Below, piece after piece: positions 31,572 to 50,428 of a DNA stretch of 64,000 nucleotides; the stretch's first letter is position 1, and each line of letters opens with the position of its first letter. Under the pieces are notes generated by a model. The model saw only the letters and a program-made list of their open reading frames with translations. It did no database searches and had not been told where the DNA came from. The DNA is taken from contig MGFX01000001.1 of assembly GCA_001792115.1 (NCBI GenBank), forward strand, positions 122,694 to 186,693, written 5' to 3'. The stretch comes from Candidatus Woesebacteria bacterium RBG_16_42_24 (GTDB taxonomy: Bacteria; Patescibacteriota; Microgenomatia; UBA8517). The translations under genes and the position numbers were made by a program.

Positions 31572-32381
31572 ATGAAAAAATTATTTTTGATAAGCGCATT
31601 TCTTTTCCTCGTTTCTTTAGCTCTGCCAAGCAAAGTCTTTGCCGACTGCGCCTTGGCCGACTGGAACGAAAATACAAGGAATATGCAGGTTTGTGTCGGA
31701 GAATTCAGTTCCGTGGCCGAACTTAGAGATACCACTGTTGAGTTTCATTGCACGGGTAATTCAAACATACCATATGGCTCTTTCTGTCGAGACATTGTAA
31801 ACCCCACATTTTCCTTTGCTAGTACAACCGACCTCCCCGATAGCGAGATCAGGCAAGATCCAAACGGACTTTACTATGCCTGCATAACCGGGCAAGGACT
31901 CAATAGAGCCATCGGCTCATTAGATGTAATCTTTTGGAATGGCGGCTCTGAATACTGTCGAATAAATAATTTATATACCCGGCCACCCGACTGGAACCCT
32001 CTTACAGAAGGCGCTCCTTGGCAAAGGGGGACCAACAATCCTGCCCCAGTTCCAATTACGGTAGATATTGAGTTAATGTGTACGACGGGCGGGGATAGGG
32101 GAATTAATACCGCCATAGGCTGTATTCCGATTTATGATTCCACTGCCTTATTTGGTTTTATTCTTAAGTGGGCGATTGGAATCGGTGGGGGAATTGCATT
32201 CATCCTAATTCTTGTCGCCGGATTTCAAATAATAACCTCGCAAGGAGATCCGCAAAGACTCCAGGCCGGAAAAGAACTCTTAACGTCGGCCATTGTTGGG
32301 CTACTTCTTATAATTTTTTCGGTATTCATTCTGGAGGTAATAGGGGTGGACATATTGGGAATCCCGGGATTTAATCAATAA
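31572..32381 (+). CDS. secreted Cys-rich protein with C-terminal VirB2/TrbC-like pilin module
   Basis: 269 aa; signal peptide; C-terminal ~70 aa (AFILILVAGFQIITSQGDPQRLQAGKELLTSAIVGLLLIIFSVFILEVIG) matches the motif shared by the downstream small pilin-like genes. Confidence 0.5.
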   Translation: MKKLFLISAFLFLVSLALPSKVFADCALADWNENTRNMQVCVGEFSSVAELRDTTVEFHCTGNSNIPYGSFCRDIVNPTFSFASTTDLPDSEIRQDPNGLYYACITGQGLNRAIGSLDVIFWNGGSEYCRINNLYTRPPDWNPLTEGAPWQRGTNNPAPVPITVDIELMCTTGGDRGINTAIGCIPIYDSTALFGFILKWAIGIGGGIAFILILVAGFQIITSQGDPQRLQAGKELLTSAIVGLLLIIFSVFILEVIGVDILGIPGFNQ

Positions 32382-32382
32382 A

Positions 32383-32718
32383 ATGCAACTTGCGCAAATA
32401 GATTTCGGACAACTATATAGGGAGTTAAGGCAAGGAAATGCGGGTTTTGATTTTAATCAGAGCCTGACACTCGGACAAATTATTAGCTCTTTAATCCCGT
32501 ATATTTTTGTAATCGCGGGGCTACTTCTGCTTTTATATCTAGTTTTTGGCGGATTCGGACTTATGACTTCAAGAGGAGACCCAAAAGCAGTTGCCGCAGC
32601 CAAGGAAAAAATCACTTTTGCCGTTGCGGGGTTCGTCATCATTTTTGTATCATATTGGATAGTTCAGATTGTAGGGCAAATTTTGGGAATTCAGGATATC
32701 CTGGATATATTTGGCTAA
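32383..32718 (+). CDS. T4SS pilin-like protein (VirB2/TrbC-type two-TM hairpin), paralog 1
   Basis: 111 aa; TM1-GGFGLMTSRGDPKAVAAAKEKITFA-TM2-YWIVQI; motif hydrophobic-GG..ITSGGD(K/P)..AK..IT.A..G-hydrophobic-W.IIQ shared by 8 genes. Confidence 0.55.
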   Translation: MQLAQIDFGQLYRELRQGNAGFDFNQSLTLGQIISSLIPYIFVIAGLLLLLYLVFGGFGLMTSRGDPKAVAAAKEKITFAVAGFVIIFVSYWIVQIVGQILGIQDILDIFG

Positions 32719-32728
32719 AGCCTTAATA

Positions 32729-33228
32729 CAATTTCCAGTTTCCAGATTCCAATTTCCAGTTAATTTCTAATTATCAAAATTTCGAAATTAATAATTTTTC
32801 CTTTCTAAAGTAAGTATTGAAGTTGTCAAAATCTTTATAATTTCCCCACCCTCATTTATTAGCGTCTTACACTTTATAACAACTTCCTCATAAGAGGGAT
32901 TGGCCTCCAGGATTAATCGAAGCCAATAGATAGATTCTCTGGTCTCTTTCCTGCAGACCCTTAATCTATGAACAAAGTCTTTTCTTCCAAGTGCTTCGAG
33001 CGCTTCAATATAATTTGACCCGGGTGAAGCGGAAGATCGTATAAGCTGTTTTCCATATTCTCTGTTGTATTCGGATTTTGGAAGTTCGAATATTATTTTT
33101 TGACAATTTTGTGCAAAAACTACGAGTCTTTCATAAAAGGCTTCTGAATCGAATTTGGTTGCCATGGGGCGAATTCTATCATTTTATTTGGAAACTGGAA
33201 ATTGGAGATTGGAAATTATCAATTATAG
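32729..33228. mobile_element. split heptamer-iteron palindrome enclosing a four-helix-bundle gene
   Basis: Left arm CAATTTCCAGTTTCCAGATTCCAATTTCCAG..AATTATCAAAAT (32729-32800); right arm TTTGGAAACTGGAAATTGGAGATTGGAAATTATCAATTAT (33183-33228); the 4HB gene lies between the arms. Confidence 0.5.
32788..33165 (-). CDS. four-helix-bundle protein (TIGR02436 family)
   Basis: 125 aa; family-typical ...Y.RL..FAQNC..II.ELPKSEY..GKQLIRSSAS.GSNYIEA.... Confidence 0.7.
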   Translation of the reverse strand: MATKFDSEAFYERLVVFAQNCQKIIFELPKSEYNREYGKQLIRSSASPGSNYIEALEALGRKDFVHRLRVCRKETRESIYWLRLILEANPSYEEVVIKCKTLINEGGEIIKILTTSILTLERKNY

Positions 33229-33285
33229 TCTTGCATGGACACCATTTGCGGCGCTATGCTAAACTACACAAGCTAAAATAAAACG

Positions 33286-34032
33286 ATGGCTAATAAGCTT
33301 CACATTAAAGCACCCCAACACGTTGCAATTATCATGGACGGCAACCGTCGCTGGGCGGCCAAGCGTGGCTTAGGGGCGGTCGATGGTCATAGGGTTGCGG
33401 CAGAAAAAACCATTGAGCCAATTGTCGAGCGGGCAATTACCCTGGGCATTAAATATTTAACCTTTTGGGCTTTCTCATCTGAAAATAGAGATAGGGACAA
33501 GGTTGAGCTCTCCGGACTTTTTAAAATTTTTAGGGAAGCACTAAAAACCCAAGTCAGAAGACTTTCGAAAAAGGGTGTAAGGATAAGAATGATAGGAGAC
33601 GTGAGCTGGTTCCCACTCGACATCGTCAAAAGGGTAAGGGAGATGGTTACACTCACAAAAGATAATGACACAATAACGGTTTCCTTTGCCCTTAATTACG
33701 GCGGCCGCAACGAAATCCTAAGAGCCGTTAAAAAACTCATAAAAGAAGTTGAAGTTGGAAGAGTTTCGATAGAGCGCGTGGACGAAGCGGAATTTTCAAG
33801 ACACCTTGATACGATTGGTATTCCTGACCCCGATTTGATTATTCGAACCGGCGGGGAAATGAGACTTTCGGGATACCTACCTTGGCAGGCGGTTTATGCA
33901 GAACTTTACTTTACTGAAGTTCTTTTTCCTGATTTTTCTCCAAAAGAATTTGATAAGGCTTTAGAAGATTTTAGTAAGAGGGACCGGCGCTTCGGGAAGG
34001 GGAGTTTCAAAGACTATATAAAGACTATATGA
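33286..34032 (+). CDS. uppS: undecaprenyl-diphosphate synthase (cis-prenyltransferase)
   Basis: 248 aa; HVAIIMDGNRRWA, LTFWAFSSENRDR, IRTGGEMRLSGYLPWQ signatures. Confidence 0.9.
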   Translation: MANKLHIKAPQHVAIIMDGNRRWAAKRGLGAVDGHRVAAEKTIEPIVERAITLGIKYLTFWAFSSENRDRDKVELSGLFKIFREALKTQVRRLSKKGVRIRMIGDVSWFPLDIVKRVREMVTLTKDNDTITVSFALNYGGRNEILRAVKKLIKEVEVGRVSIERVDEAEFSRHLDTIGIPDPDLIIRTGGEMRLSGYLPWQAVYAELYFTEVLFPDFSPKEFDKALEDFSKRDRRFGKGSFKDYIKTI

Positions 34033-34123
34033 AGAAGACTTCGTCTTCACGAAATTCCAAATTCCCTGCCTCGCCGGCAGGCGGGCAATTACCCCGCCTA
34101 CGCCAAGGCTTCGGCGGGCAGGC

Positions 34124-34210
34124 AATCTCCAATTAAATTCCAAAATCCTAATTATTAATTTGATAATTCTAGATTATCTGGAAACTGGAATCTGGAAATT
34201 GGAAATTAGT
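34124..34210. repeat. heptamer-iteron palindromic element upstream of pilin gene
   Basis: TCTCCAATTAAATTCCAAAATCCTAATTATTAATTTGATAATTCTAGATTATCTGGAAACTGGAATCTGGAAATTGGAAATT. Confidence 0.65.
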
Positions 34211-34233
34211 ATATGTTTTGTTACACTTAAGTC

Positions 34234-34548
34234 GTGAGAGAGATTGCCCTGAATATCGGAACCTATTTTAATTCTCCCATCGGTAAAACCGTGGGTGCAG
34301 GGCAACTAGTTTCAATAATCCTTTCAAACGCATTACTTTTTGCCGGAGTTCTTATGGTCTTCTTCTTAGTTGTCGGGGGAATTGGGGTAATATCGGGTGC
34401 GGGAGAAGACAATCCCGAGAAAGCCGCTAAAGGAAAACAGGCCGTAACTTTTGCCCTCATAGGTTTTCTGGTAATTTTTGCATCTTATTGGATAATTCAG
34501 ATAATAGAGCAGATTACGGGAGTCAACATTTTTAACCCGGGATTTTAG
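34234..34548 (+). CDS. T4SS pilin-like protein, paralog 2
   Basis: 104 aa; LVVGGIGVISGAGEDNPEKAAKGKQAVTFALIGFLVIFASYWIIQIIEQI. Confidence 0.55.
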   Translation: MREIALNIGTYFNSPIGKTVGAGQLVSIILSNALLFAGVLMVFFLVVGGIGVISGAGEDNPEKAAKGKQAVTFALIGFLVIFASYWIIQIIEQITGVNIFNPGF

Positions 34549-34591
34549 GAAGTCTTTATTTAGTATCTGTTTTGGTATTTAATAATATTAG

Positions 34592-34939
34592 ATGCAAGAA
34601 GTAGCACAAGTTTTCGGAAACGTTAATGCGCCCCCTGGAGTTAGCCAATATGGAAACCTGACCGAGGGGGGGCCGACTTATTTCATAACCAATATTTTAA
34701 GGTTTCTAATTGTCATTGCGGGAGTATATGCGCTAATTAACATGGTTCTTGCAGGTTATGCTTTTTTGTCAGCGGGAGATGACCCGAAAAAGGTGGCTGG
34801 GGCTTGGGCCAAGATTTGGCAATCTATTTTGGGGGTTGTAATTTCGGCCGGGGCATTTGTTCTGGCTGCTCTTTTTGGAAGACTTTTGTTTGGGGATTAC
34901 TCGGCCTTCTTAAGGCTTAGAATTTTCGGTCCCAATTAA
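34592..34939 (+). CDS. T4SS pilin-like protein, paralog 3
   Basis: 115 aa; MVLAGYAFLSAGDDPKKVAGAWAKIWQSILGVVISAGAFVL. Confidence 0.5.
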   Translation: MQEVAQVFGNVNAPPGVSQYGNLTEGGPTYFITNILRFLIVIAGVYALINMVLAGYAFLSAGDDPKKVAGAWAKIWQSILGVVISAGAFVLAALFGRLLFGDYSAFLRLRIFGPN

Positions 34940-34940
34940 T

Positions 34941-35330
34941 ATGGAAAACTTTATCGCTCAAAGAGAAATACCAATAAACGGTACTATCGAAGGGTTTGGC
35001 CCACTGGGGTTGGAGGGTAGAAATCCCCAAGAGTCAACGAACATATTTAATTTCTTCCTCTCAAGCACGATTGGGCTACTGACTATTATTGCTGCTATTT
35101 GGTTTCTTTTTGTGCTTATCACGGGGGCAATTAGTATTATCTCTTCCGGAGGCGACAAGGCTAAAGTAGCAGAAGCCAGGGGGAGAATTACAACGGGGCT
35201 TATCGGGTTAATAGTAGTTATTGCCGGAATATTTATCTTAGAGCTTATCGGAACTTTAATCGGGTTTGATCTTATCTTAAATCCGGGGGAGTTTATTCAA
35301 AGAATCCCGCCCTGGATTGTTGGTCCATAA
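34941..35330 (+). CDS. T4SS pilin-like protein, paralog 4
   Basis: 129 aa; LITGAISIISSGGDKAKVAEARGRITTGLIGLIVVIAGIFILELIG. Confidence 0.55.
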   Translation: MENFIAQREIPINGTIEGFGPLGLEGRNPQESTNIFNFFLSSTIGLLTIIAAIWFLFVLITGAISIISSGGDKAKVAEARGRITTGLIGLIVVIAGIFILELIGTLIGFDLILNPGEFIQRIPPWIVGP

Positions 35331-35679: not shown

Positions 35680-35694
35680 TTAAGGAGTAGAGAT

Positions 35695-36021: not shown

Positions 36022-36033
36022 GACTTATCTAAG

Positions 36034-36061
36034 GCAGCGCCCGAAAGGGCGCTTTTTTGTT
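36034..36061 (+). terminator. rho-independent terminator
   Basis: GCAGCGCCCGAAAGGGCGCTTTTTTGTT: GC-rich hairpin followed by T-run, directly after pilin paralog 6. Confidence 0.7.
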
Positions 36062-36113
36062 GGCAAAGGGCAAAATTGCTTTTTTTGTATCTACGCCCTA
36101 AACTTTTAGTGAT

Positions 36114-36434: not shown

Positions 36435-36440
36435 TGATAT

Positions 36441-38840
36441 ATGATTCAACTGCCCAAATTACCAAGATTTAGGAATTATGATTTACGATTTAAGATAGCA
36501 CCTATCCAGGGACTTACACTCATTACATTTTCCCTTCTACTAGCGTCTTCACTTTTTCTCTCGATAAAACTTGCCAGCGCCCAAGTCCCCCCACCAACTG
36601 TACCTTGCAATCAAACGAATGAAGACAGGGGTTATCCCGACGAATTCCATTCACTCCGTCCTTACCAGGCAAGTCCCTGTAGCGACGAAACAGAGCCCTC
36701 TGCTCTTTTTTGCGGGAATGACCTGACTTTGCAAGACAGCTTTACGGTAAGCAGAAGCCAAGCATCTCAGTGCGACCCCATAAGTCCGGATACGGAAGAG
36801 TGTATTTTTAAAATAACCCGAAATTTGGATATTGCGGTTGACGTTTCGGGTGCAGAGCTACCCATAATGGGAAGGACTGAGGATGACGTAATCAATTCCC
36901 AAAATCAAAACGAAACCAGAAACGATGCTGAAAAAGTCAACGAGTATGTAAGTTGGTATTTAAATGGTACAAATATTGCCGCCGAATATGGAGATTTAGA
37001 CGCAGGCAATGAAGACGATATCTCAAAACTCGTGAACTTCTCGGGTCCAATAAAAAAACTTCTTCCCGAACGAATAAAAAGAGATGAAATTAGAGAGACC
37101 ATAGAGGCAAGACGAGCAGACAGGCACGACCAGGTTGTTGGATGTATAAGAAGAGAAGGATTTCTCGGAATTTATGTGGGAATCGTCGAATGTTACTCGG
37201 GCGGTGGGGGAACGGAAATTCGCCTTTCCGACCTGGCTGATCATATGCCGCCACAGGAGGAAGATCCACGCTTTGCCAATTATCAAGAGTTCCTCTGGGC
37301 ATATTTTAGGTGGCGGGGCTACGAATGTCCGAATATCCCAATTGTCAATATTACCGTCTGCTTCGAGGCGCCCTGGCTGTTTAATTACTGGGCCGACCTT
37401 TATTACCTAACGCCCCTTTCTTCCACCGAAGACAGGCTGGGACAAATTCAAGTCGTCAATCCTTACGTGCAACCCGTGACTCCCGGAATGTTTATTTTTG
37501 TGAATAGTTTAGTTACAACTCCAGCAAAACTTTTTTTTGCCCACATGGAAGAATCGCAGGAGCTGGCCGATACTCTTCAAGATACTTTTGTTCCCAAGGG
37601 GAACCCCAAAAGCGGTCCGGTCTCAGGAGTAAGCCCGCCCGAATATTGCGACTTAACCGAAATTAGAACCAACCCGGGTGACGACCTTTTTGCAGGAGAG
37701 ATTGGGGTGGACCTAACTTATACTGCCGACTTTTCCTGCACCTTTGATATATTCGACCCGCCGGACCCGGTTGATAGATACCGATGCAGCGAACTCTATG
37801 GGGGTGTCTGTGTATCGGATGATTACGATTGCGACGAAATGGACGGACAACTCGATTGTCCTTCGGGGTGGAGATGCGGTAGACCCGAGGGTAGCTGTAA
37901 CGCCCAAAGACCTAACCCGTCTTGTCCGGCAACTGCGCAGGTGGTTCTGAATACAGTGACCAAAACTCCATTGGTAGACGATATTTGGTCTAGGCTTGTT
38001 GCCGGAGTTTCTGGGGTGTTCAAAAGAATTTTCCCCAAAGTAGCGCCGGGGGCACCCGTTGAGGGAATTCTTGACATTCCGGCGGCGACCGGAGTCACCT
38101 ATAGCGCTGAAATTAATAACGTCCCTGTCCCGGTTGCCGCCGGGAATCCGGGAAACCAGCGTGGCCCAGCCGCGGAGCTTTATTTTCCCCATATAGGAGG
38201 AATTGAGCAATACTTCTTACAATGCATCCAAACTGCCCTTAGGCCGCAGGGTTTTGGGGAAGTTTGCCCCTCGGGGGAACCTCCCGAAGTGGTTACAACC
38301 TGTCCGTCCGTACCCGACTCAGCAATCGACAGTAAATGGCTGGGTGTACCTAAACAAAATTACTTAAGGATGGCTAATCAGAGAATGGCTGCCTGTCCCG
38401 GACCTGAAAATAACCTTGCGGAAGAATGCTACAACTACGTAGTAAGTGAATCGCTAGATGAAGGAGTTAATCCTGCCTTTTCCCTGACAATGTGGTTTAA
38501 CGAAAGTGGTGCAAGCAATTACTGCACATCTCCTACTTTTGATTTTGGTATAAAAAATGGTGCACCTGCTGAAAACATCGTTGAACAACTCGACTTATTT
38601 TTGGTCCAACCATTCAGAATAACTGCTGCCTGCAGGAGCGACCCCGCCTGGATAGAACCAATGGAAGCGTTCTTGAGCGTTTTCCACGGAAACTACTACT
38701 GCGACACTTCGTATGATGACGGCGGCTATTATCAAAACACACTTAATAACAGCTGGATCCCGGTAACAGACGGGTGGGGCGGCTGCGGCGGAGGAACTTC
38801 TTTTGGCATCGACTGGCCGACGGATAGTAGCTGTCCATAA
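36441..38840 (+). CDS. large secreted Cys-rich surface protein (candidate pilus-associated adhesin)
   Basis: 799 aa; N-terminal TM/signal, >40 Cys in CxxC/CxxxxC clusters, no catalytic motif; position directly after pilin array. Confidence 0.4.
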   Translation: MIQLPKLPRFRNYDLRFKIAPIQGLTLITFSLLLASSLFLSIKLASAQVPPPTVPCNQTNEDRGYPDEFHSLRPYQASPCSDETEPSALFCGNDLTLQDSFTVSRSQASQCDPISPDTEECIFKITRNLDIAVDVSGAELPIMGRTEDDVINSQNQNETRNDAEKVNEYVSWYLNGTNIAAEYGDLDAGNEDDISKLVNFSGPIKKLLPERIKRDEIRETIEARRADRHDQVVGCIRREGFLGIYVGIVECYSGGGGTEIRLSDLADHMPPQEEDPRFANYQEFLWAYFRWRGYECPNIPIVNITVCFEAPWLFNYWADLYYLTPLSSTEDRLGQIQVVNPYVQPVTPGMFIFVNSLVTTPAKLFFAHMEESQELADTLQDTFVPKGNPKSGPVSGVSPPEYCDLTEIRTNPGDDLFAGEIGVDLTYTADFSCTFDIFDPPDPVDRYRCSELYGGVCVSDDYDCDEMDGQLDCPSGWRCGRPEGSCNAQRPNPSCPATAQVVLNTVTKTPLVDDIWSRLVAGVSGVFKRIFPKVAPGAPVEGILDIPAATGVTYSAEINNVPVPVAAGNPGNQRGPAAELYFPHIGGIEQYFLQCIQTALRPQGFGEVCPSGEPPEVVTTCPSVPDSAIDSKWLGVPKQNYLRMANQRMAACPGPENNLAEECYNYVVSESLDEGVNPAFSLTMWFNESGASNYCTSPTFDFGIKNGAPAENIVEQLDLFLVQPFRITAACRSDPAWIEPMEAFLSVFHGNYYCDTSYDDGGYYQNTLNNSWIPVTDGWGGCGGGTSFGIDWPTDSSCP

Positions 38841-40853: not shown

Positions 40854-43559
40854 TTAACCCCTAGTAGCCTTATCAAAAGCCGCACTCAAAGCCTTCTGTC
40901 CGGCAAGTTTTGCTAGTCTTCTATTAAAGTTAAGTCTACGCTTTATATCTTCCATAGTTATTTCTGTTAGAAATGTTCCTACCTCGGGAGAAAGCTCTTC
41001 CCGCGTTAATGTATTTATGAATTCCGCCAAAACTGTACCTATTGATTTACGCCCTATATCCAAGTCTTTATCGGCAAGGGCCATGTCTATTACACCGACT
41101 GCCCAAAGACCTCTTAGCTGCATAGGGCCCATTTTCTCGATTCTCAGATTTTCAGGTGCATCGGCAGTATTGAAATATACAACAGCTTCTTGCATAAAAG
41201 TCTTGTCCATTTCGGCAATCTTAGGCTTTCTATCTAAAAGAAGTCCACTTAGAAGCTTATATCTTGTCATAATAACGCTGCAATAAAACTGCCAATTGTC
41301 CTCTATTTGACTTATATCCAAATTGTCCACATTCATTTGGGTATCTACCCTAAAAGGAAGCCTTTCCCGCTGCCTCCCTTTAAATTTCTTTGTTTGTTTA
41401 TCCTCTTGGGTCCATCTTAACCACGACGTTCCAAACCCCCTAATTTCATCCTCGTGTACTTGCGGGCCCCTTATTCTACCCTTGCTTCTCCTGGCTTCCC
41501 TCCACTTTTTCAGACCAAATATTTCAGCTACCTGGTCGTTGCCTACAGTATCTCCTCTATTGAAAACAGAGTCTTCAAGGGTGGCCCGAGATAGTTTTTC
41601 TGCAAGCTGAAGCGACTTTTTAGCGTTTTCTCTTCTTTCTTCTGGAGTATTTCCATCAACACTCTCACTCCTCGCAATTTCCTCTATAAGAAGATTCCTA
41701 ACGGCTTCTTCTATTATTGGGTTTGTTTCTCTAAAAAAATTTACATTAGTGCGCGGCTTGAGTTTTCCTTCTTTGTTTCGTAAATCTTTATCATCTTTTG
41801 GAACCACCCTATCAACCCATTTCATATACTCCTGGTTATCGAAAACTGTATTGCCATCCTTATCTTCGCTTACATCAAAATGGTTTAGTTGCTGAAGTAA
41901 GTCCCACGCCCTGGGCACATCGAGCCCAGGCAATAACTCTCGTTTTAAAAACGTCTCTACTATCTCCCTATTTAACTGGTGCCCCCTTCTCTGAGCTTCT
42001 GCCGCCGCACTTCCAATTGCATATCCATGTCCCACTTTCTCTTCCTCCCTAAAAATCCACCCGTCAGCTTGTTTAATTAGCTCTGAACAGTCGTGTACGG
42101 CAAGCCTGGCTCTAGCTTCTCTCGCGATTCCTTTATCAATTTTTTCTATGGCCCCAAGTGATACCTCTAGCCCCCTTACAATATAGGTATTGCCAAAATC
42201 GAGAGTATCCCTGTTCGAATTCTCTATAGCATCTAATTTCTCTCGAACAAAAGCCCTAAGTTCTTCCACTTTTCCTTCGTATCTTTTAACGTCTATTTGA
42301 TACTCCCCCATAGTCATCCTAGATTGTGATTCGGCGGCACTCCTCATCGCCTCTGCGGCAGCAGTTAACACATCTGCCGATTCTTTAGTCCCTTGTTCCG
42401 ATTCGGGTCTAAATTTCTTCTTTGATAATGACGTCTTGACAAAATCGTGGGGTTCTACTCCCAGCTGGAAAAATGCTTCCCTCTGTACGCGCTTCTCTAG
42501 AAATTTCAAGCCTTCCTCTCCCTCTGATTCTCCGTGCATTTTTAACCACAAAATATCCTCCGGGGATCCCGCCACCATTGAAGGTCGCTTTTTAAATCGC
42601 TTTTCAAAACCGATTTTTCTAATTCTTAGCGCCTCCCCGGCGAATGCCGCACGCAGCATTCCTTCTTCTTCGGGTTTTAGGAAGCCCGTTGTACTTAAGG
42701 CTAAATTTTCTGCGTTAATCCCAAAGTTTTTAACATTGTCGTAAACCTCATCCCAAGTACTATCTCCAAGAATATTTAAATAAGTTTGTGTAATATCTTT
42801 AACAAATGCTTTGTGGTCCTGGTCTCGTTCGCTAAAGTTTTTCCACATCTCGTCCCTTTTTTCCATTGCTTTCTTTCTCGTCTCTTCTGATGTCTCATCG
42901 TCAATAATTATTTTTCGAAGGTCTTTAAAATTATCTGGTAATCTACCATCCTCTTTTGGGGGTTCCTCGGGCGGTTTTTCCGGAGGGCCTCCCTCTCCAC
43001 CAGGAGGAGTGCCTCTAGCTTCTTTTTCCCACCCCCTACTTTTTATCCATCGTGCAACCGCTCCCGGAAACCTTTCGACAAATTCATCTGCGGCATGAAC
43101 AGCTGCACCCCCCAGCGAAACCGGTAGGGCATTTAGCAAGCCTTCCCATGTTGACGCCTTTCCTTCCTTCTCAAGCTCCTCAATGTAGCGCATAAGGATT
43201 TTGCCCTGCCAGTGATGGCCCTCTGTCTCACTAATCTCATTTCTATTTACAAGCCCTTCTATAGTGTCGTAAGACCCTTGTAGAACTTCTTTGCTCACCA
43301 TGACATCTGGCCTTCTAGCGAGGCTATGAATTTCTACTTGAAGTGTCTCATTTTTAATATTATCGACCTCTTCTCGATTCTTAACTAACCATGGAGCCCA
43401 CTCTTCTCCCTCCGGTCCCTCAACCCGCCGATGGGGTAAAGATTGGTGTGGGTTGACAGGATTAGCCATAGCCCTTTTTCGAATCTCCCCAATTGAAGCA
43501 CCTTTTGATTCAATAATAATTTCGGGGCCTTTGCCCCCTCCGCCTTCTGCCATATCCAT
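40854..43559 (-). CDS. large acidic cytoplasmic hypothetical protein
   Basis: 901 aa single ORF, opposite strand within the T4SS-like locus; no recognisable motif. Confidence 0.4.
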   Translation of the reverse strand: MDMAEGGGGKGPEIIIESKGASIGEIRKRAMANPVNPHQSLPHRRVEGPEGEEWAPWLVKNREEVDNIKNETLQVEIHSLARRPDVMVSKEVLQGSYDTIEGLVNRNEISETEGHHWQGKILMRYIEELEKEGKASTWEGLLNALPVSLGGAAVHAADEFVERFPGAVARWIKSRGWEKEARGTPPGGEGGPPEKPPEEPPKEDGRLPDNFKDLRKIIIDDETSEETRKKAMEKRDEMWKNFSERDQDHKAFVKDITQTYLNILGDSTWDEVYDNVKNFGINAENLALSTTGFLKPEEEGMLRAAFAGEALRIRKIGFEKRFKKRPSMVAGSPEDILWLKMHGESEGEEGLKFLEKRVQREAFFQLGVEPHDFVKTSLSKKKFRPESEQGTKESADVLTAAAEAMRSAAESQSRMTMGEYQIDVKRYEGKVEELRAFVREKLDAIENSNRDTLDFGNTYIVRGLEVSLGAIEKIDKGIAREARARLAVHDCSELIKQADGWIFREEEKVGHGYAIGSAAAEAQRRGHQLNREIVETFLKRELLPGLDVPRAWDLLQQLNHFDVSEDKDGNTVFDNQEYMKWVDRVVPKDDKDLRNKEGKLKPRTNVNFFRETNPIIEEAVRNLLIEEIARSESVDGNTPEERRENAKKSLQLAEKLSRATLEDSVFNRGDTVGNDQVAEIFGLKKWREARRSKGRIRGPQVHEDEIRGFGTSWLRWTQEDKQTKKFKGRQRERLPFRVDTQMNVDNLDISQIEDNWQFYCSVIMTRYKLLSGLLLDRKPKIAEMDKTFMQEAVVYFNTADAPENLRIEKMGPMQLRGLWAVGVIDMALADKDLDIGRKSIGTVLAEFINTLTREELSPEVGTFLTEITMEDIKRRLNFNRRLAKLAGQKALSAAFDKATRG

Positions 43560-43714: not shown

Positions 43715-44098
43715 ATGGCGGAACCTGTCCAAAAAACTAGCTATAAAAACTTAATAGTTTATCAGAAGGCAAAAGCTCTAACGACAGATGTCCTTAGTTA
43801 TTTCTCAGAACATAAGCTACCTTACACAAAAGAATTCTTAATAAGACAATTATTCCGATCCGTTAGTTCAGTTGGGGCAAATATTGCTGAAGGCTACGGA
43901 AGGCATTATCAAGGAAGCCTAAGGCAATTCTTCGCCATCGCACGAGGTTCGAGTTTTGAGTCAGATTACTGGCTAGAGATTCTTCAGGAAATGGGAGAAT
44001 TTGACGGGAAAATAATATCAGATTTTATTAACAGAAACACAGAGCTTTCAAAAATGTTGACAAGTTTGATGAAAAAGACAGACGTTTCGCGTCAATAG
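43715..44098 (+). CDS. four-helix-bundle protein (TIGR02436 family)
   Basis: 127 aa; YKNLIVYQKAKALT..V......LPYTKEFLIRQLFRSVSSVGANIAEGYGR. Confidence 0.7.
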   Translation: MAEPVQKTSYKNLIVYQKAKALTTDVLSYFSEHKLPYTKEFLIRQLFRSVSSVGANIAEGYGRHYQGSLRQFFAIARGSSFESDYWLEILQEMGEFDGKIISDFINRNTELSKMLTSLMKKTDVSRQ

Positions 44099-44149
44099 TC
44101 TATGCACTTTGTTCTTTGCACTACGTACTAATTACTATTTACTAAATTA

Positions 44150-45286
44150 ATGGAACAACAACACCCGATACCGCAACAAATCTCCTCTTACCAATTCCGA
44201 CTGGTGGGGGATATGACCCTCAAGCAATTCCTGCAAGTCGGCGGAGGCATGTTAATTGCCCTAATTATTTACTCAACTCCAATCATTGGACTTATTAAGT
44301 GGCCTCTTGTAATTATTTCTGCCTTAACAGGCGCGGCCCTTGCGTTCCTGCCTTTCCAAGAGAGGCCCCTAGAGAAATGGATTTTTGCTTTCCTTCGCTC
44401 AATCTATTCCCCAACCCTTTTTTATTGGAAACGTCTGCCCTCCGAAACCGCTTTTTTCCAAGAACAACCCACAACCCTACCCACCCCCTCGGTAGTTACC
44501 CCGCCGCCTCCCCCCGGGTATCCTGAACTGGCTATAGAAATCACTCCTCCTGTCGCCCCTGCTGCCCCTCTTCCAGCCGGAAGTCCTCAAGGTTTGACTG
44601 CCAAGCCACCCCTTATGGTGCCAACAATTGCCCCTCTGGGTTTTCCTTCATCGGGGCCGGTGTCCCAGGCCCCGAAAGCTCCAGTGGAGCTTGAACCGGG
44701 ATTAACAATCTTTCCTAACCTTGAGGAAGCAGAAAAAACTTTCTTGAGTAAAATCACGGGGCTATTTAGTCTTGCCCCAACCTTGCCTACCAATGAAGGT
44801 CCCGTTAGCGAGGAAGAGAAAAAAGGGCGCCTGAATGTCGTTCCATCAAAGCCAATCAAAATTGAGCCCATCCATGAGGAAAAAGAGGTCCCCGAAGAAC
44901 CCGCACTAGAACCTGTTTATGTTTCTGTTGCACCAACCTTAACTCCCACAAGGAAGTTAGCCGAGGAATTTGCGCAATTTAGTGAGGACGCCGCTCCTCC
45001 CTTTCCTCCCAGTCTTCCAAATGTGATTGTAGGTCAAGTTATGGACTCAAATAAAAAAATCGTAGAGGGAGCAATACTTGAAATTAAAGATTCTGCGGGA
45101 AGGCCCGTAAGAGCACTCAAAAGCAATAAACTAGGACATTTTATGATCGTCACTCCTCTAACTAACGGCCGCTATACAATAGAAATCGAAAAAAATGGGT
45201 TTATCTTTGATACTGTAAGTTTTGACGCGCTGGGAAACGTCATTCCGCCGATAGCGATCAAGGCCAAGGAGATAACCAATGCCTAA
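44150..45286 (+). CDS. PrgI-family (VirB3-like) T4SS membrane protein with Pro-rich linker and C-terminal CarboxypepD_reg-like beta-sandwich domain
   Basis: N-terminal ~100 aa: QFRLVGDMTLKQFLQVGGGMLIALIIY...LPFQERPLEKWIFAFLRSIYSPTLFYWKR matches the PrgI family pattern; followed by PPPPGYPELA... linker and GQVMDSNKKIVEGAILEIKDSAGRPV...GRYTIEIEKNGF domain; overlaps start of VirB4 gene. Confidence 0.55.
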   Translation: MEQQHPIPQQISSYQFRLVGDMTLKQFLQVGGGMLIALIIYSTPIIGLIKWPLVIISALTGAALAFLPFQERPLEKWIFAFLRSIYSPTLFYWKRLPSETAFFQEQPTTLPTPSVVTPPPPPGYPELAIEITPPVAPAAPLPAGSPQGLTAKPPLMVPTIAPLGFPSSGPVSQAPKAPVELEPGLTIFPNLEEAEKTFLSKITGLFSLAPTLPTNEGPVSEEEKKGRLNVVPSKPIKIEPIHEEKEVPEEPALEPVYVSVAPTLTPTRKLAEEFAQFSEDAAPPFPPSLPNVIVGQVMDSNKKIVEGAILEIKDSAGRPVRALKSNKLGHFMIVTPLTNGRYTIEIEKNGFIFDTVSFDALGNVIPPIAIKAKEITNA

Positions 45287-48023
45287 ACTATCTTTTCCTA
45301 CTCTCCCTATTGCGAACCCTTTCAAGGTACCTGATACTCCGATTATTGCCACCTCCCAGGACTTACTACCAATAGCAGACATTGACCAAGATGTTGTGGT
45401 TTACAAAGAAGGTGGCGCGGCATTGGTGGTTGAGACTACTTCTTTAAATTTTGGACTTCTTTCGGAGAAGGAGCAGTATGCCGTAATTGCGGCATATGCG
45501 GCACTCCTTAACTCCCTTTCTTTCCCAATTCAAATTCTGATCCGCTCCCAGAGAAAAGATATTAGCCACTATATGGAATATCTCGCTCAGGCAGCCAGGA
45601 AGGGTATGGATCCCAAACTTGCCAAGATAATGGAGGGGTATAAACTCTTCATCGTTGACGCCGTAAAAAAGAAAAATGTTCTGGGTAAAAAATTCTATAT
45701 AATAATCCCCTTTAGTCCTCTTGAGTTGGGTTTGGCTAAATCCATAAGCTCCCTTACCAGGTCCTCCGGCCCCCTTCCTTATCCCAAAGCATATGTAATT
45801 AAGAAGGCGAAAGACATCCTTTATCCCAGGCGCGACCACTTAATCAGACAGGGGGGGAGGCTGGGAATTAAACTAAGGCAACTTAGCACAAAGGAGCTTG
45901 TTGAGCTCTACTACAACATATTTAATCCCCCACCACCGGCTACTAAAAAGATGGAGGAATTTGCCCCGCGCGAGAGCGGTGGTTTGCCAGATTTTCTAAA
46001 AGCCGGCGCGGGTCTTCTTGGAGGCCATAAACCCCCTACCCAATCCCCACCCGAAGCACCAGTCCCGAGCGGACTTGGAGGATCACCGATCCCGAGTGGA
46101 AATGGAGGACCAACGGCCCCGAGCGGACTTGTCCTGAGTAAAATCGAAGGAGTCGAGGGACCAACGGCCCCGAGCAGAGTCGAGGGGCAGATTGGCCCAT
46201 GGGGTGAAAAGCCGAAGGTATTTTCTCCAACAATTTCTCTTGCCCAGAAAAATATGGGCCTTTTGGATGTCATTGCTCCTCAATCAATTGAGATTGATTT
46301 TGACTTTATTAAATTAAACGGCGTCTATATCCGCACTCTCTATACAGCCATTAGACGCAGGTACGCTTCCCCCGGGTGGATTGAGCAAATTATCAATTTT
46401 GATAGTTCTTTGGACATTTCATTTCATATCTATCCAGTCGAGGGTAAAAGCGTACTTGACGACCTCAGACGCAAAATTGCCGAAATGGAGGCGGAAATGG
46501 AAACGGACATTGAAAGAGGCAAAATTGTCAATCCGGTTACTCAGGCTCAGCTGGAGGATGCATTGGCTCTCCAGGAACAATTGGTTAAGGGAATTGAGCG
46601 GTTTTTTGACTTCTCCTTCTATATCAGTATTCCGGCGTCGGACTTAGAGGAGCTTAACCATCTAACTTCCCAAGTAAAATCGACCCTTCGTTCGCTACAG
46701 ATCGAGGGAATTCCGGGCGCCCTTGATTGTGCCGACGCTTTTATCTCAGCCGGGCCATTCGGGTTGGACAAGATGGCCGTAACCAGAAACATGGATACAA
46801 CCAGCCTGGCAACGACTTTCCCGCTAACGAGTGCGGAGTTATCTTCCGACAAAGGAGTACTTTACGGAATAAATTCACAAAACGAGTCTTTCATTATTTT
46901 TGATAGATTCTCCTTGGAAAACTCCAACATGACAATATTTGCCACATCAGGAGCCGGAAAAAGTTATTTTGTAAAGCTCGAGGCCTTAAGAACCTTAATG
47001 CTAGGAGCTGAGATTATCGTCATTGACCCGGAAAGTGAGTATAAGACTTTGGCCGAGGCCGTCGGAGGAGAATTTATTTCCTTCTCCTTCTCCTCCCCTT
47101 CAAAAATTAACCCATTTGATTTGTCAGCTGTATATGAAGAGGGTGAGAACTCGTTGGGACTTAAGATTCTGTCCCTCCACTCTCTTTTTAAGGTCATTAT
47201 GGGGGCACTCACCCCAACCCAGGAGGCGCTTTTGGATCGGGCCCTAATCATGGCCTATCGCGGAAAAGGAATTACCCAAGACCCAGCCACCCAAAAGAAA
47301 GAGCCCCCCCTAATGGAGGACCTTTATAAATCACTCGTGGGGATGGAAACGCCGGATGCGATGGACTTGGCCGCCAGAATCGAAAAGTTTGTAAAGGGAA
47401 GCTTTGTGGGAATATTTGACCAGCAGACAAATATCGATATTAAAAACTCCTTTACTGTGTTCTCCGTCAAGGACCTTGAGGAAAGCCTTCGGCCTATTGC
47501 TATGTTTATTATTCTTGATTTTATTTGGACCAGGGTTAAAAGGGACCTTAAAAAGAGGGTTTTAATAGTGGATGAGGCCTGGCACATGATGCGCTACCCC
47601 GACTCTGCCCAATTTTTGTGGTCTGTGGTTAAAAGGGCTAGAAAATACTTTCTAGGTTTGACCACCATTACGCAGGACGTGGAGGATTTTTTGGCCCAGG
47701 ATATCGGAAAAGCCATTGTTACAAACTCCGCCCTCCGCGTACTTCTCAAACAGTCCCCGGCCGCAATTGACAATATCGGCCAAGTATTTTACTTGTCTGA
47801 GGGAGAAAAACAGTTGCTTCTTGCCGCAAATATCGGAGAGGGGATCTTTTTCGCCGGTGCTCACCACGCTCCCATTAGGGTTGTAGCCTCGCCCGAAGAG
47901 CACGGCCTAATAACCACCAAGCCGCAAGAGCTTTTGCAAAAAGAGGCGGCGTCTGCCCAAGTCGCCCCTTCTGAAGCCGCATCTATCGCCCAAGCAACTG
48001 TCCAGGGGCTAGGAAACCTTTAA
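45279..48023 (+). CDS. VirB4/TrbE/PrgJ-family type IV secretion ATPase
   Basis: 914 aa; Walker A TIFATSGAGKSYFVK, Walker B VLIVDEAWHMM, CagE/TrbE/VirB4 C-terminal region; Pro/Gly-rich insertion (aa ~230-300). Confidence 0.8.
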   Translation: MPKLSFPTLPIANPFKVPDTPIIATSQDLLPIADIDQDVVVYKEGGAALVVETTSLNFGLLSEKEQYAVIAAYAALLNSLSFPIQILIRSQRKDISHYMEYLAQAARKGMDPKLAKIMEGYKLFIVDAVKKKNVLGKKFYIIIPFSPLELGLAKSISSLTRSSGPLPYPKAYVIKKAKDILYPRRDHLIRQGGRLGIKLRQLSTKELVELYYNIFNPPPPATKKMEEFAPRESGGLPDFLKAGAGLLGGHKPPTQSPPEAPVPSGLGGSPIPSGNGGPTAPSGLVLSKIEGVEGPTAPSRVEGQIGPWGEKPKVFSPTISLAQKNMGLLDVIAPQSIEIDFDFIKLNGVYIRTLYTAIRRRYASPGWIEQIINFDSSLDISFHIYPVEGKSVLDDLRRKIAEMEAEMETDIERGKIVNPVTQAQLEDALALQEQLVKGIERFFDFSFYISIPASDLEELNHLTSQVKSTLRSLQIEGIPGALDCADAFISAGPFGLDKMAVTRNMDTTSLATTFPLTSAELSSDKGVLYGINSQNESFIIFDRFSLENSNMTIFATSGAGKSYFVKLEALRTLMLGAEIIVIDPESEYKTLAEAVGGEFISFSFSSPSKINPFDLSAVYEEGENSLGLKILSLHSLFKVIMGALTPTQEALLDRALIMAYRGKGITQDPATQKKEPPLMEDLYKSLVGMETPDAMDLAARIEKFVKGSFVGIFDQQTNIDIKNSFTVFSVKDLEESLRPIAMFIILDFIWTRVKRDLKKRVLIVDEAWHMMRYPDSAQFLWSVVKRARKYFLGLTTITQDVEDFLAQDIGKAIVTNSALRVLLKQSPAAIDNIGQVFYLSEGEKQLLLAANIGEGIFFAGAHHAPIRVVASPEEHGLITTKPQELLQKEAASAQVAPSEAASIAQATVQGLGNL

Positions 48024-48027
48024 TTAA

Positions 48028-49836
48028 ATGGCAAAAGAAGTCTCTTTAAAAATAACCTACTCACAAGCTCCGGGGGTAAGAAAGCCTACAGTCGAAAAAC
48101 TTCATCAAGATATCAAAGAGGCGGGCTACGGCTTTTTCCAAAAAAACCCAGAATATGGGCCTTCTTTTTTACTCTTTTCCTCGGGTGTAAAAAGTAACCA
48201 ATTAGCAGGTGAGATAAAAAAAGCTCCCGAGAAGGGGCTTGATATTGAAAGCATTTCTCTTCTTGAAGACGTCAACTTAAAATTAAAAACTTTTGAGCAA
48301 GAAAACCCTGAGCTTTTTCGAGACCTGAGCGAAACTTACTACGAAGGCGTTTCTCAAATTGAAATCACCGAGGAGGTCGGGGGTCCAGGACAATATATCT
48401 CTCTTAAGCCTTCCGCTGACAACACATATTATGAATTTTCCCCGGGGCCATCCTTAGACCAAGCAGGAATCGATATTGGCCCCGCCAGAGAGGCCGCCTC
48501 CTTCGCCCTTAACAAAATTGCTGAACCGGTCAAAAAGAAAATTGTCGAAGCCGGAGTGAAAGTCGCTACAAAGGCCGTCACAAAAGCCGCTGTTGGGACC
48601 GCCACAAAAGTAGGGGTACAGGCTGCGGCTCAAGCCGTCGGTTCAACCGTTCCGATAATAGGAAATATCATCGCTTTTATTACCACAACTGTTATAGCTG
48701 GCATTATCGACCGGGCTTTAATCGCAGCCAAAAAAAGGGCAAGGGACGTTGAGGACGCCGTAGGGGGGGCTATTATAGCCTCCTTGCAGTTTTTGGGTCT
48801 TCTGGGGGGAATCCTTTCGGCAACTTTTTCAACAATTCTTGGAATGGTCATCGTCATAATCATCTCCATACCGTTCACCATCGCCTATATACTCTTCATC
48901 ATTAACTCCGGCGCCTACCTTGTACCACCCTCACAAATTTTAGCTCCTGGTGAAAATCCCTATATAGAGATAACAAAAGTGGCTAGCGAAACGGAATTCG
49001 AAAATTCAGATTTACCAATTAGCGTCACTTATACAATTACCGTCACTCCTTTAAGGGGGTCTTTAACAAACATCTCTATTTCCCACGTATGCGAAATCTT
49101 AAGCCGCAGGCCTACCGACGATTGTCCCGCCCCTACTGATCCAGCACCAGTTTTGATATCACCAGCGACTCCTTATGTATATACGTATACGGTAACTTAC
49201 ACTCAGGCGGATGCTGATTATCGCGATTCCTTGGTCCTCAATACTTTTTCTGTTACCGCAGACACCGACGAAGTTTCCCAAACTACAGCAACGGGGGCGG
49301 CCTCGGTCATTATCGGAAATCCTCCCACGGAGTGTTATACTTTTGATGGTAGCTGGGACGCCAGTTCTCAAGCACAAGGTTACAAAAACACGCTACTAGG
49401 TGCCATTACCACCCTCACTTCTAACTATACTCCTTTTGCCCAAAAGGTCTGTACAGGCGGACAGCTAGTACGGCTTGAATACACACAAAACTTAGGTTGT
49501 CCTGGCGCCTGGGCTTGTGCCTTCAGAAGCAGTGTAATAAGATTTAATGGAGGCGGACTGAATAATCCCAATAGTGCCTTGTATATTTTGACTCACGAAT
49601 CCGGTCATATTGTTAACTACAGACTGGACTCCCTTTACCAACAATATGAAGATTGGCCGGGGGTAGATCAGGAAAGACCGTCTATCTGTTCCTATGCTCC
49701 AGCAAGAACGGAGGCTGCGGAGGCGTTTGCCGAATCGGCTGCATTATATGTAGCGTCGACCCGCTGCACAACCCCGTCTACCTACCCCTCTCTTTACCCT
49801 GCACATTACTCATTTGCTGACCAAGTATTATTCTAG
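48028..49836 (+). CDS. membrane protein with C-terminal HExxH zinc-metallopeptidase-like domain (candidate T4SS cell-wall-remodelling component, PrgK/VirB1 functional analog)
   Basis: 602 aa; central TM bundle (aa ~180-300), C-terminal ...ALYILTHESGHIVNYRL...E... (HExxH + downstream Glu); position after VirB4. Confidence 0.4.
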   Translation: MAKEVSLKITYSQAPGVRKPTVEKLHQDIKEAGYGFFQKNPEYGPSFLLFSSGVKSNQLAGEIKKAPEKGLDIESISLLEDVNLKLKTFEQENPELFRDLSETYYEGVSQIEITEEVGGPGQYISLKPSADNTYYEFSPGPSLDQAGIDIGPAREAASFALNKIAEPVKKKIVEAGVKVATKAVTKAAVGTATKVGVQAAAQAVGSTVPIIGNIIAFITTTVIAGIIDRALIAAKKRARDVEDAVGGAIIASLQFLGLLGGILSATFSTILGMVIVIIISIPFTIAYILFIINSGAYLVPPSQILAPGENPYIEITKVASETEFENSDLPISVTYTITVTPLRGSLTNISISHVCEILSRRPTDDCPAPTDPAPVLISPATPYVYTYTVTYTQADADYRDSLVLNTFSVTADTDEVSQTTATGAASVIIGNPPTECYTFDGSWDASSQAQGYKNTLLGAITTLTSNYTPFAQKVCTGGQLVRLEYTQNLGCPGAWACAFRSSVIRFNGGGLNNPNSALYILTHESGHIVNYRLDSLYQQYEDWPGVDQERPSICSYAPARTEAAEAFAESAALYVASTRCTTPSTYPSLYPAHYSFADQVLF

Positions 49837-49855
49837 ATAAGATTGTAGGAGGTAA

Positions 49856-50428
49856 ATGAAAATCATAGAATTTATTAAAAAAAGAAAACTAATCCTGATT
49901 CTTGTTCTGGTTCTTACCGCATGGATAGCAAATTCTATTCTTTCAAGAATCCCTGAGCGGCCCCAGGGTCCGGGGGAGCCCGGTGTTAGCTACAGGAATC
50001 TAGTTCCCGGGGTAAGTAGCCGATCTGATGTTATCGAAAAAATGGGAAACCCTGTCGATCAAGCCGCCAAAGGAGAAGAAATTTTACTTAGTTTTAAGTC
50101 TACAAGTCCTACAAGAACCCATGAAGCGATAGTAGACAGCGGCAACACTCTTTCTTTCATAAAGGAGATTGTCTCTGTAAATGACGATAAACATATCGCT
50201 GATATCACCTCCCAACATGGAGAAGCCCCCCATACCCTTTACGGGCCGCACTCTATCAATGGTTTTGATCTGTTCGTCTATCCCGATAAGGGCCTTGCCT
50301 ATATCGGTAATCCTTATGGCACCCAAGGAACTATTCTGGAAATCTGGTATTTCCCACCAACGACAATTGAAAATTTTAAGTCGACTTGGGCACCGGGCTA
50401 TTCGAATACTTATCAACCGTCTCAATAA
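49856..50428 (+). CDS. membrane-anchored secreted hypothetical protein
   Basis: 190 aa; N-terminal TM; last gene of the + strand block. Confidence 0.35.
   Translation: MKIIEFIKKRKLILILVLVLTAWIANSILSRIPERPQGPGEPGVSYRNLVPGVSSRSDVIEKMGNPVDQAAKGEEILLSFKSTSPTRTHEAIVDSGNTLSFIKEIVSVNDDKHIADITSQHGEAPHTLYGPHSINGFDLFVYPDKGLAYIGNPYGTQGTILEIWYFPPTTIENFKSTWAPGYSNTYQPSQ

Follow-up and report, generated by a model that had tools for sequence, protein, structure and literature searches.

An origin-proximal type IV secretion locus with eight ordered VirB2-like pilins in a Woesebacteria genome: a probable non-conjugative system of the Patescibacteria clade

The type IV secretion systems (T4SSs) of Patescibacteria are the only ones among monoderm bacteria with VirB2-like pilins, and a 2025 review lists them as the one exception to the otherwise pilin-less T4SSs of monoderms (PMC12857230). 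In the one species tested, Southlakia epibionticum, the system is essential for epibiotic growth; it is similar to the conjugative systems of Gram-positive bacteria and comprises a series of essential pilins, and neither a coupling protein nor a relaxase could be recognised in it (Wang et al. 2023; PMC10633639). A survey of 3,035 Patescibacteria genomes found VirB4 in 2,417 of them, mostly as a single clade nested in the MPF_FATA class, together with PrgI/VirB3 and VirB6 homologs, few relaxases, and 441 arrays of 2-11 VirB2-like pilins that are abundant in Microgenomatia (Quinonero-Coronel et al. 2025; PMC12102498). The same survey places the locus near dnaA/dnaN in Microgenomatia and Paceibacteria, and reports that VirB6 homologs are scarce in Microgenomatia and that only 22.6% of VirB3 homologs adjoin VirB4. 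The role of the system in Patescibacteria has been described as completely unknown (PMC11665869). Here we analyse a locus of this kind at positions 31572 to 50428 of a 64,000-nucleotide stretch of Candidatus Woesebacteria bacterium RBG_16_42_24 (assembly GCA_001792115.1, contig MGFX01000001.1, positions 122,694 to 186,693), hereafter the window, to which all coordinates refer. With a probability of about 80%, the locus is a chromosomal, non-conjugative, vertically inherited and origin-proximal T4SS of the Patescibacteria clade, of MPF_FATA (monoderm) descent. The initial annotation, made from the sequence alone, had read it as a T4SS-like locus that combines a Gram-positive-type core with paralogous pilins of VirB2/TrbC type. 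The matches to the pilin family PF18895, to PrgI and to CD1110-type VirB4 bear this out, and the interpretation, right as it is, rediscovers the published Patescibacteria system. The value of the locus is that of a well-resolved Microgenomatia example that fills gaps of the survey, which was based on hidden Markov models (HMMs). It adds a candidate VirB6 analogue, a fusion of PrgI to a beta-sandwich, a lysozyme-like domain in a protein of 799 amino acids (aa), the exchange of an M34-like for an M23 peptidase domain, and a strict order of the pilin genes. The organism is uncultivated; identical proteins are found on Woesebacteria contigs of metagenome-assembled genomes (MAGs) from the Rifle aquifer (RBG_16_42_24, GCA_001792155.1 and GCA_001793175.1).

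The closest described system, that of S. epibionticum (SEML1_0006-0019), shares with this locus a VirB4 of MPF_FATA type, PrgI/VirB3, an array of PF18895 pilins, wall-hydrolase genes around virB4, the lack of a relaxase or type IV coupling protein (T4CP) nearby, and a position near dnaA/dnaN. It differs in having six pilins and in belonging to the Saccharimonadia, whereas the Microgenomatia locus described here has eight pilins and an M34-like peptidase. Relative to the survey (PMC12102498), these Woesebacteria stand out by a PrgI-CarboxypepD_reg fusion directly upstream of virB4 and by a 578-aa protein at the VirB6 position.

The core of the apparatus is formed by the virB4 and prgI-like genes, the latter overlapping the start of the former by 8 nt. 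The 914-aa VirB4 ATPase (45279..48023, plus strand) reaches 379 bits with NF045971, the NCBIfam equivalog model for the CD1110-type VirB4 of the MPF_FATA class, for which the cut-off is 325. Its N-terminus is weakly TrsD-like. In Pfam it matches P-loop_TraG (PF19044, 100 bits), and it aligns with the solved Thermoanaerobacter VirB4 structure 4AG5 (E 2.8e-48) and with TrwK (E 7.5e-5). Both nucleotide-binding motifs are intact (Walker A ATSGAGKS, Walker B LIVDE), and a Pro/Gly-rich repeat insertion (residues ~230-320) lies between the N-terminal and the ATPase parts. At 46053-46178, four copies of a 21-nt direct repeat, spaced by 27, 27 and 51 nt, encode this Pro/Gly-rich linker (..PSGLGGSPIPSGNGGPTAPSG..), which is resembled by the Pro-rich linker of the PrgI-like protein. 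The latter, of 378 aa (44150..45286, plus strand), passes the PF12666 gathering score of 27 only narrowly, with 28.8 bits, and consists of a PrgI domain (residues 6-85), a Pro-rich linker (14% Pro in the whole protein) and a C-terminal CarboxypepD_reg-like beta-sandwich (residues 293-351). Since PrgI was matched in 53/53 of its orthologs and CarboxypepD_reg in 51/53, the assignment is sound and the fusion is a trait of the lineage; in 83 of 86 loci its gene immediately precedes virB4. Both family assignments of the initial annotation, including the Walker motifs, the Pro-rich linker and the carboxypeptidase-regulatory-like domain, therefore hold, each match being above its family threshold.

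A scan of 185,579 species genomes yielded the 80 related loci that were kept (VirB4 best-segment identity 60-86%), and gene neighbourhoods were mapped in 86 fetched loci reaching at most 10 kb to either side of virB4. All 80 closest relatives carry the same Patescibacteria-type locus. Because of this, and because the best NCBIfam model for VirB4 is that of monoderm CD1110, a probable placement of this VirB4 in the Patescibacteria clade nested in MPF_FATA is supported indirectly. Many of these records are titled Woesebacteria, Microgenomates or Patescibacteria, and others are labelled otherwise; among the latter, many third-party annotation (TPA) MAG records with this locus (our loci L010, L012, L018, L020-L024 and others) bear the title 'uncultured Gammaproteobacteria bacterium', a label that almost certainly misplaces bins of Patescibacteria. 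The recurring block runs from the pilin genes through those for the 799-aa protein, the 578-aa protein, PrgI, VirB4, a 602-aa protein and, in some loci, a 190-aa protein, to dnaN and dnaA on the minus strand. This synteny extends across about 60 Woesebacteria/Microgenomatia loci, with the dnaN/dnaA boundary in about 65. In the window, dnaN (50433-51545, minus strand) and dnaA (51745-53130, minus strand), identified from the Pfam annotations of identical contigs, follow the T4SS block directly and form this conserved right-hand boundary. A perfect DnaA box (TTATCCACA) lies at 53217-53225. The placement of the locus in the chromosome among core genes, proposed from the start, is thereby upheld. 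On the other side, directly upstream of the block, a divergent gene (29731-31485, minus strand) codes for a 584-aa protein that has a SpoIID domain and, at its N-terminus, a coiled coil.

The gene order also parallels that of pCF10 of Enterococcus faecalis, the MPF_FATA prototype, in that the genes for the 578-aa polytopic protein, PrgI, VirB4, the 602-aa protein and the 190-aa protein correspond in order to PrgH-PrgI-PrgJ-PrgK-PrgL, with the same VirB4 and PrgI families. Unlike this locus, pCF10 has no pilins and encodes the T4CP PcfC, the relaxase PcfG and LPXTG adhesins. This order, and the fact that the VirB4 and PrgI families were defined on conjugative elements of Firmicutes, are what could be expected of the transfer module of an integrated conjugative element, or of a remnant of one. 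Such an origin is nevertheless highly improbable. The open reading frames (ORFs) scanned across the 64-kb window contain no domain of a relaxase, T4CP, integrase or recombinase, the GC content of the locus is unremarkable, and relaxases are rare in Patescibacteria (PMC12102498). Moreover, the locus lies between housekeeping genes, at the same place beside dnaN/dnaA in about 60 species, which points to vertical inheritance and not to a mobile island. An integrated element of variable presence with linked relaxase, T4CP and integrase was hence rejected, none of the three being in the window and the chromosomal site being fixed in relatives. The other ORFs of the window include glycolysis genes, dnaG, rpoD, leuS, genes of ribosomal proteins, a comF-like gene and several without a Pfam match. 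As the initial annotation had noted, neither VirD4 nor a relaxase is visible in the window. Pfam scans and the annotations of neighbouring genes likewise gave no relaxase or coupling protein immediately adjacent to the locus.

The most conspicuous part of the locus is its pilin array, 9-14 kb upstream of virB4. All eight modules proposed initially match Pfam PF18895 (T4SS_pilin); six exceed its gathering score of 26.6, and an HMM built from the eight recovers exactly these eight among all window ORFs of at least 60 aa. All are encoded on the plus strand. Pilin A (269 aa, 31572..32381; 32.9 bits over residues 197-257) is followed by pilin B (111 aa, 32383..32718; 38.5 bits) and, after an interruption, by pilins C (34234-34548; 27.5 bits), D (34592-34939; 20.6 bits, E 4.7e-4), E (34941-35330; 22.3 bits, E 1.4e-4), F (35317-35679; 32.3 bits), G (35695-36021; 37.2 bits) and H (36114-36434; 43.8 bits), D and E being the two that stay below the gathering score. 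The coordinates given earlier agree with the ORF listing of the window, and the total of eight holds (6 + 1 + 1). The run of consecutive small genes, counted as seven, in fact comprises six (34234-36434). Nor is the array 'expanded', since eight pilins in fixed order are the norm in Woesebacteria and published arrays hold 2-11 pilins. Each module has the two-helix hairpin described for it, with two hydrophobic segments around a conserved loop ([ST]xGGD......A[KR]). The largest gap within the array falls after pilin G and holds here a strong terminator-like GC hairpin with a T-run (36036..36063, plus strand; a 7-pair stem with 6 GC pairs and a TTTTTTG tail). A comparable hairpin exists between G and H in only some relatives, so that its significance is uncertain, and a scan of the T4SS locus for sigma-70 promoters and terminators gave results no better than in shuffled sequence.

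The paralogs are highly divergent, with pairwise identities of 17-50% (mostly 17-35% within one genome). Such divergence could be expected of a variation cassette, in which interchangeable paralogs serve antigenic variation or adaptation to host strains, as has been suggested for the VirB2 arrays of Bartonella and Anaplasma and put forward for Patescibacteria (PMC12102498). The pilins of 18 related loci holding at least four pilins were each assigned to their best match among pilins A-H of the window. The order A-B-C-D-E-F-G-H is kept in 18/18 loci, incomplete only where the fetched DNA ends, and every paralog has an ortholog at the same position of the array. These one-to-one relationships are clear, the bit score of the best match being typically 1.3 to 3 times that of the second-best (141 versus 50 bits in the example of pilin D). 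The identity between orthologs is 38-75%, the highest values being those of pilin G (52-75%). Orthologs of pilin A head the array in L048 and L070, and position-specific orthologs of pilin B are present in L020, L030, L035, L038, L048 and L070. Conservation of order and orthology across species indicates that the duplications predate the divergence of the species and that each copy was retained in place. It argues against antigenic variation and the host-variation idea of the survey, and favours distinct structural roles within a multi-subunit filament. No recombination-type repeats flank the pilin genes, and the essentiality of the pilins in S. epibionticum agrees with distinct roles and speaks against redundancy (PMC10633639). 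Taken together, a variation cassette appears improbable.

Pilin A differs from the other paralogs in that a signal peptide and a Cys-rich extracytoplasmic domain of ~165 aa (8 Cys) precede the C-terminal two-helix module (predicted transmembrane segments at residues 1-25, 192-226 and 240-267). If the signal peptide exports the Cys domain, the hairpin would be oriented with the N-terminus out, the loop in and the C-terminus out, which is the topology of VirB2. The VirB2, TrbC and TraA pilins of diderm systems share with those described here the small two-helix hairpin, the short conserved basic loop between the helices and the proximity to VirB4. They differ in having a long cleavable signal peptide and in being a single pilin, whereas here there are eight conserved paralogs with no such leader; the host is a monoderm, without the outer-membrane core of VirB7/9/10 found in diderm T4SSs. 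The pilin genes abut, so that a classical signal peptide would not fit between them. A motif M-x(1-3)-[NK]-L-L-A-Q lies in the first 10 residues of 65 of 127 Woesebacteria T4SS pilins; shuffling predicts 12.5, and the highest count in 500 shuffles was 24. The N-termini of pilins B-G in the window are exemplified by MLAQV (gene at 35695) and MQLAQI (gene at 32383). This LLAQ-type N-terminus could be a short leader or a motif for recognition or processing.

Whether these proteins build an extracellular pilus bears on how the whole apparatus is understood. Monoderm T4SSs generally lack pili, and a pilus of the Patescibacteria T4SS, of which none has been imaged, is mentioned as a possibility only (PMC12857230). 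Pilin H in turn has a weak match to NF045849, the Mbov_0395 family of pilin-like proteins from a Mycoplasma integrated conjugative element (23.8 bits, below the cut-off of 40). From these observations one could regard the small proteins as integral-membrane subunits of a translocon, or as a short conduit spanning the wall. The membership in PF18895 and the VirB2-like hairpin with its conserved basic loop fit true pilins, and the large Cys-rich extracytoplasmic head of pilin A makes more sense on an exposed structure, so that an arrangement without an extracellular pilus seems unlikely. On a filament, pilin G, being the best conserved across species, would be the candidate major subunit, and pilin A a candidate tip or adhesin pilin. 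Going further, we tentatively suggest, as a possibility short of even odds, that the eight VirB2-like proteins are fixed, ordered and specialised subunits of a heteromeric monoderm T4SS filament, with a shaft of G and a Cys-rich tip of A, combined with a host-tuned, interchangeable peptidase 'warhead' on the protein encoded after VirB4. By analogy, such a set would resemble the division into major and minor pilins in type IV pili or in the pseudopili of type II systems. To our knowledge, a heteromeric VirB2 filament has not been described for any T4SS.

Two proteins of the locus are candidates for opening the cell wall. The first is the 799-aa protein (36441..38840, plus strand), encoded directly after pilin H and secreted or anchored, with 28 cysteines and a single N-terminal hydrophobic segment; the initial annotation had described it as Cys-rich and secreted. 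It has no match in a Pfam scan, but it belongs to a large family (533 matches), several members of which carry PF18896 (SLT_3) at the C-terminus. Its own C-terminus (residues ~630-785) is a lysozyme-like domain in which E688-S689 and D701 are conserved, that is, it shows the lysozyme-like fold with a conserved catalytic Glu for which FlgJ, Slt and EtgA, an enzyme of type III secretion systems, can be named. The 13-residue spacing between E688 and D701 matches that of Glu73 and Asp86 in goose-type lysozyme. A lysozyme-type, VirB1-like activity probably resides in this C-terminus, and the protein is a candidate VirB1-type glycosidase. Its beta-rich body of ~550 residues, with conserved cysteines, has no detectable fold relative. 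The initial annotation had assigned the wall hydrolase to the HExxH protein in the PrgK slot, which stands, and had overlooked this lysozyme-like domain.

The second candidate, the 602-aa membrane protein in that slot (48028..49836, plus strand), is composed of an N-terminal cytoplasmic part, transmembrane helices (residues ~205-296), an immunoglobulin-like beta-sandwich (~310-430) and a C-terminal M34-like zinc-peptidase domain (436-602). The HESGH motif was confirmed at residues 523-527 (nt 49594-49608). H523, E524 and H527 are invariant in 46/46 distinct homologs of 24-53% identity, and E565 (45/46), E569 (44/46) and Y556 (43/46) are conserved as well. These homologs were obtained with the full-length query; a search with only the C-terminal 183 residues returned nothing. 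An AlphaFold2 model of residues 300-602 has a mean predicted local distance difference test score (pLDDT) of 89.7, and Foldseek places the peptidase domain closest to PPEP-1/Zmp1 (5a0x_B; TM-score 0.63, target-normalised; probability 1.0; E 2.3e-4), with anthrax lethal factor also matched, so that the predicted structure agrees with the zinc-metallopeptidase-like domain proposed from the motif. As in these enzymes of MEROPS family M34, the HExxH motif is followed by a Tyr ~33 and a Glu ~42-46 residues downstream. The spacing is that of Y178 and E185 of PPEP-1. The identity to M34 enzymes is 14-16%, there is no Pfam M34 match, and here, unlike in those enzymes, the domain is tethered to the membrane through the transmembrane helices and the beta-sandwich. 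The C-terminus resembles an M34-like gluzincin in its modelled fold, and membership in M34 itself is not claimed.

Among 51 orthologs of the 602-aa protein, the transmembrane region and the beta-sandwich are common and the C-terminus varies, carrying Peptidase_M23 in 20, CHAP in 4, Amidase_2 in 1, NlpC/P60 in 1 and the HExxH domain in about 22. HExxH and M23 never occur together, either in nine orthologs that were scanned individually or in the precomputed Pfam annotations of the database homologs. This distribution supports the notion of the HExxH domain as an alternative 'warhead', a peptidase mounted on a scaffold that is itself conserved. The domains that replace it in other orthologs (M23, CHAP or amidase) are peptidoglycan-directed, which suggests that its substrate lies in the wall or at the surface. 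The presence of these hydrolases at the same slot, together with the parallel order in pCF10, agrees with the earlier proposal that the HExxH protein sits where Gram-positive systems encode a PrgK-type hydrolase. In pCF10, PrgK alone carries LytM, SLT and CHAP; in the present locus, the glycosidase-like domain and the peptidase domain belong to separate proteins.

The remaining membrane proteins are assigned with less precision. The 578-aa protein (38943..40679, plus strand) has a signal peptide, an extracytoplasmic domain of ~140 aa and then about 6-8 transmembrane segments, and a homolog lies upstream of PrgI-VirB4 in 67 loci. It has no Pfam, NCBIfam or PDB-profile match, and its comparison with PrgH of pCF10 by hhalign gave a probability of 0.3%; among 58-59 of its orthologs, Pfam yielded a single match, to an unrelated Hint_2 domain. 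The VirB6/PrgH-like nature put forward initially is hence borne out by polytopic topology and position and finds no counterpart in sequence or profile similarity to VirB6/TrbL or PrgH, which makes the protein a candidate VirB6/PrgH analogue by topology and position only. Similarly, the 190-aa bitopic protein (49856..50428, plus strand), with an N-terminal transmembrane segment and a conserved domain of ~150 aa containing a LEIWYF motif, is conserved in 26 loci and stands as a candidate at the position of the VirB8-like PrgL, although comparisons with PDB chains and with PrgL of pCF10 revealed no similar sequence.

A possible mode of action can be drawn from these assignments. VirB4 would dock on the membrane via PrgI, and the 578-aa protein would act as the channel, as VirB6 does. 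VirB4 would extract membrane-inserted pilins from the bilayer and polymerise them into a surface filament, in which eight ancient, position-specific pilins would have distinct and non-redundant roles, with G as the major subunit and A as the tip or adhesin. The lysozyme-like domain, acting on glycan strands, and the peptidase, acting on peptide stems or surface proteins, would open the cell wall, that of the cell itself and possibly that of a host.

As to its function, contact with a host, delivery of effectors or uptake is most likely, and not DNA conjugation, by analogy with S. epibionticum, in which the homologous T4SS and all of its pilins are essential in co-culture. Uptake has been considered in its own right. 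Patescibacteria are unable to synthesise nucleotides, and uptake by way of the T4SS has been proposed (PMC11665869; PMC12857230), so that the apparatus might be an import device for DNA, nucleotides or other host molecules, like ComB of Helicobacter or Ced of archaea. No T4CP is encoded nearby, and VirB4 weakly matches CedB, through which archaea import DNA (49.5 bits, a small fraction of the cut-off of 700). This match reflects the shared P-loop region only, and pilins and wall hydrolases fit either direction of transport equally; a dedicated importer seems distinctly unlikely.

Several points weigh against the interpretation of the locus as a non-conjugative, host-directed T4SS. No pilus of a Patescibacteria T4SS has been observed, so that the small proteins could instead function within the membrane. 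Sequence comparisons do not support the assignments to VirB6 and VirB8, and the fold match of the peptidase is moderate (14-16% identity, E about 2e-4). The function is extrapolated from a different class, the Saccharimonadia. Finally, the absence of VirD4 from the window says little, as a T4CP could be encoded elsewhere in the genome; T4CP homologs elsewhere in the genome have been reported in the literature for most Patescibacteria.

The gene order proposed initially for the plus strand holds for the genes that it lists but leaves out four others: uppS, which splits the pilin array, the minus-strand gene of a 901-aa protein, and a pair of 23S_rRNA_IVP genes. The 901-aa protein (40854..43559, minus strand) is a soluble orphan that has no transmembrane segment and no Pfam, NCBIfam, PADLOC or PDB match, and is charged as well as soluble. 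Its family comprises 106 representative clusters among 1.84 billion proteins, and ten more distant homologs gave no Pfam match either. The gene occurs at the same site in about 12 of the 86 loci, several of them from the same species, and lies on the opposite strand between the 578-aa gene and PrgI in a few other species as well (L010, L049, L059, L066 and L070). Considered as a component of the apparatus, the protein was discarded in favour of a variable insertion, in view of its presence in only a minority of loci. The second 23S_rRNA_IVP gene (43715..44098, plus strand), coding for a four-helix bundle (PF05635, 85 bits), lies just before the prgI-like gene. The first (32788-33165, minus strand; Pfam) and uppS (33286-34032, plus strand; Pfam) together make up the segment that splits the array (32726..34208). 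Since 23S_rRNA_IVP genes are found in a minority of the related loci, uppS in none of the 86 fetched loci (at most 10 kb to either side of virB4), and the 901-aa gene in about 12, all three are insertions into the block, and the segment 32726..34208 is a lineage-specific insertion outside the apparatus. In L048 and L070, unlike in the split array of the window, pilins A, B and C are contiguous, and the position of uppS inside the array suggests a recent rearrangement. Accessory Avd proteins of diversity-generating retroelements fall in the 23S_rRNA_IVP family, which raised the idea of such an element. It was abandoned, as no reverse transcriptase was present among the Pfam-scanned ORFs and short intergenic and tRNA-fragment-like elements aside, no long direct repeats of the template/variable type were found in the window.

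Some minor observations concern short repeats. A tandem heptamer, (TGGAAAY)x4, is present six times in the window, where chance would give none: 28735-28761 and 32732-32758 on the minus strand, and 33189-33215, 34179-34205, 53327-53353 and 54237-54263 on the plus strand. Four of them closely precede genes: one lies 29 nt before pilin C, with which the run of six pilins begins, and the others lie before uppS, yidC and the rpmH region. Two of these repeats in inverted orientation (32730-32778 and 34159-34207, 88% complementary) flank the segment with the first 23S_rRNA_IVP gene and uppS. A query of three repeats matched only the loci of the same species, L001 and L002, so the element, which could be regulatory or recombinational, appears to be lineage-specific. 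Tandem ACTATGYACTATG heptamers, for their part, are confined to three clusters (8 matches versus 0.02 expected). One cluster (31443-31462, plus strand) is located ~110 nt upstream of pilin A, another (43655-43695, minus strand) in the intergenic region upstream of the 23S_rRNA_IVP, PrgI and VirB4 genes, and the third (53121-53208, both strands) upstream of dnaA at the putative origin, by the DnaA box TTATCCACA. Their sequence and placement may point to a shared regulator site that links the T4SS genes with dnaA/oriC.

Outside the locus, the low-GC stretch at 10080-14525 (GC fraction about 0.38-0.39) holds small cassette-like genes. Judged by translation alone, they code for a GNAT-like protein, a HicB-like protein and a toxin-antitoxin pair whose toxin is RelE/ParE-like. 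No tRNA was called there by ARAGORN. Repeated elements of 48-71 nt in this stretch resemble tRNA 3' ends in reverse complement (..GGTGGGTGGAATCGAACCAC..), and another repeat, of 32 nt, returns at intervals of about 1.75 kb; the region may be a hotspot of serial integrations.

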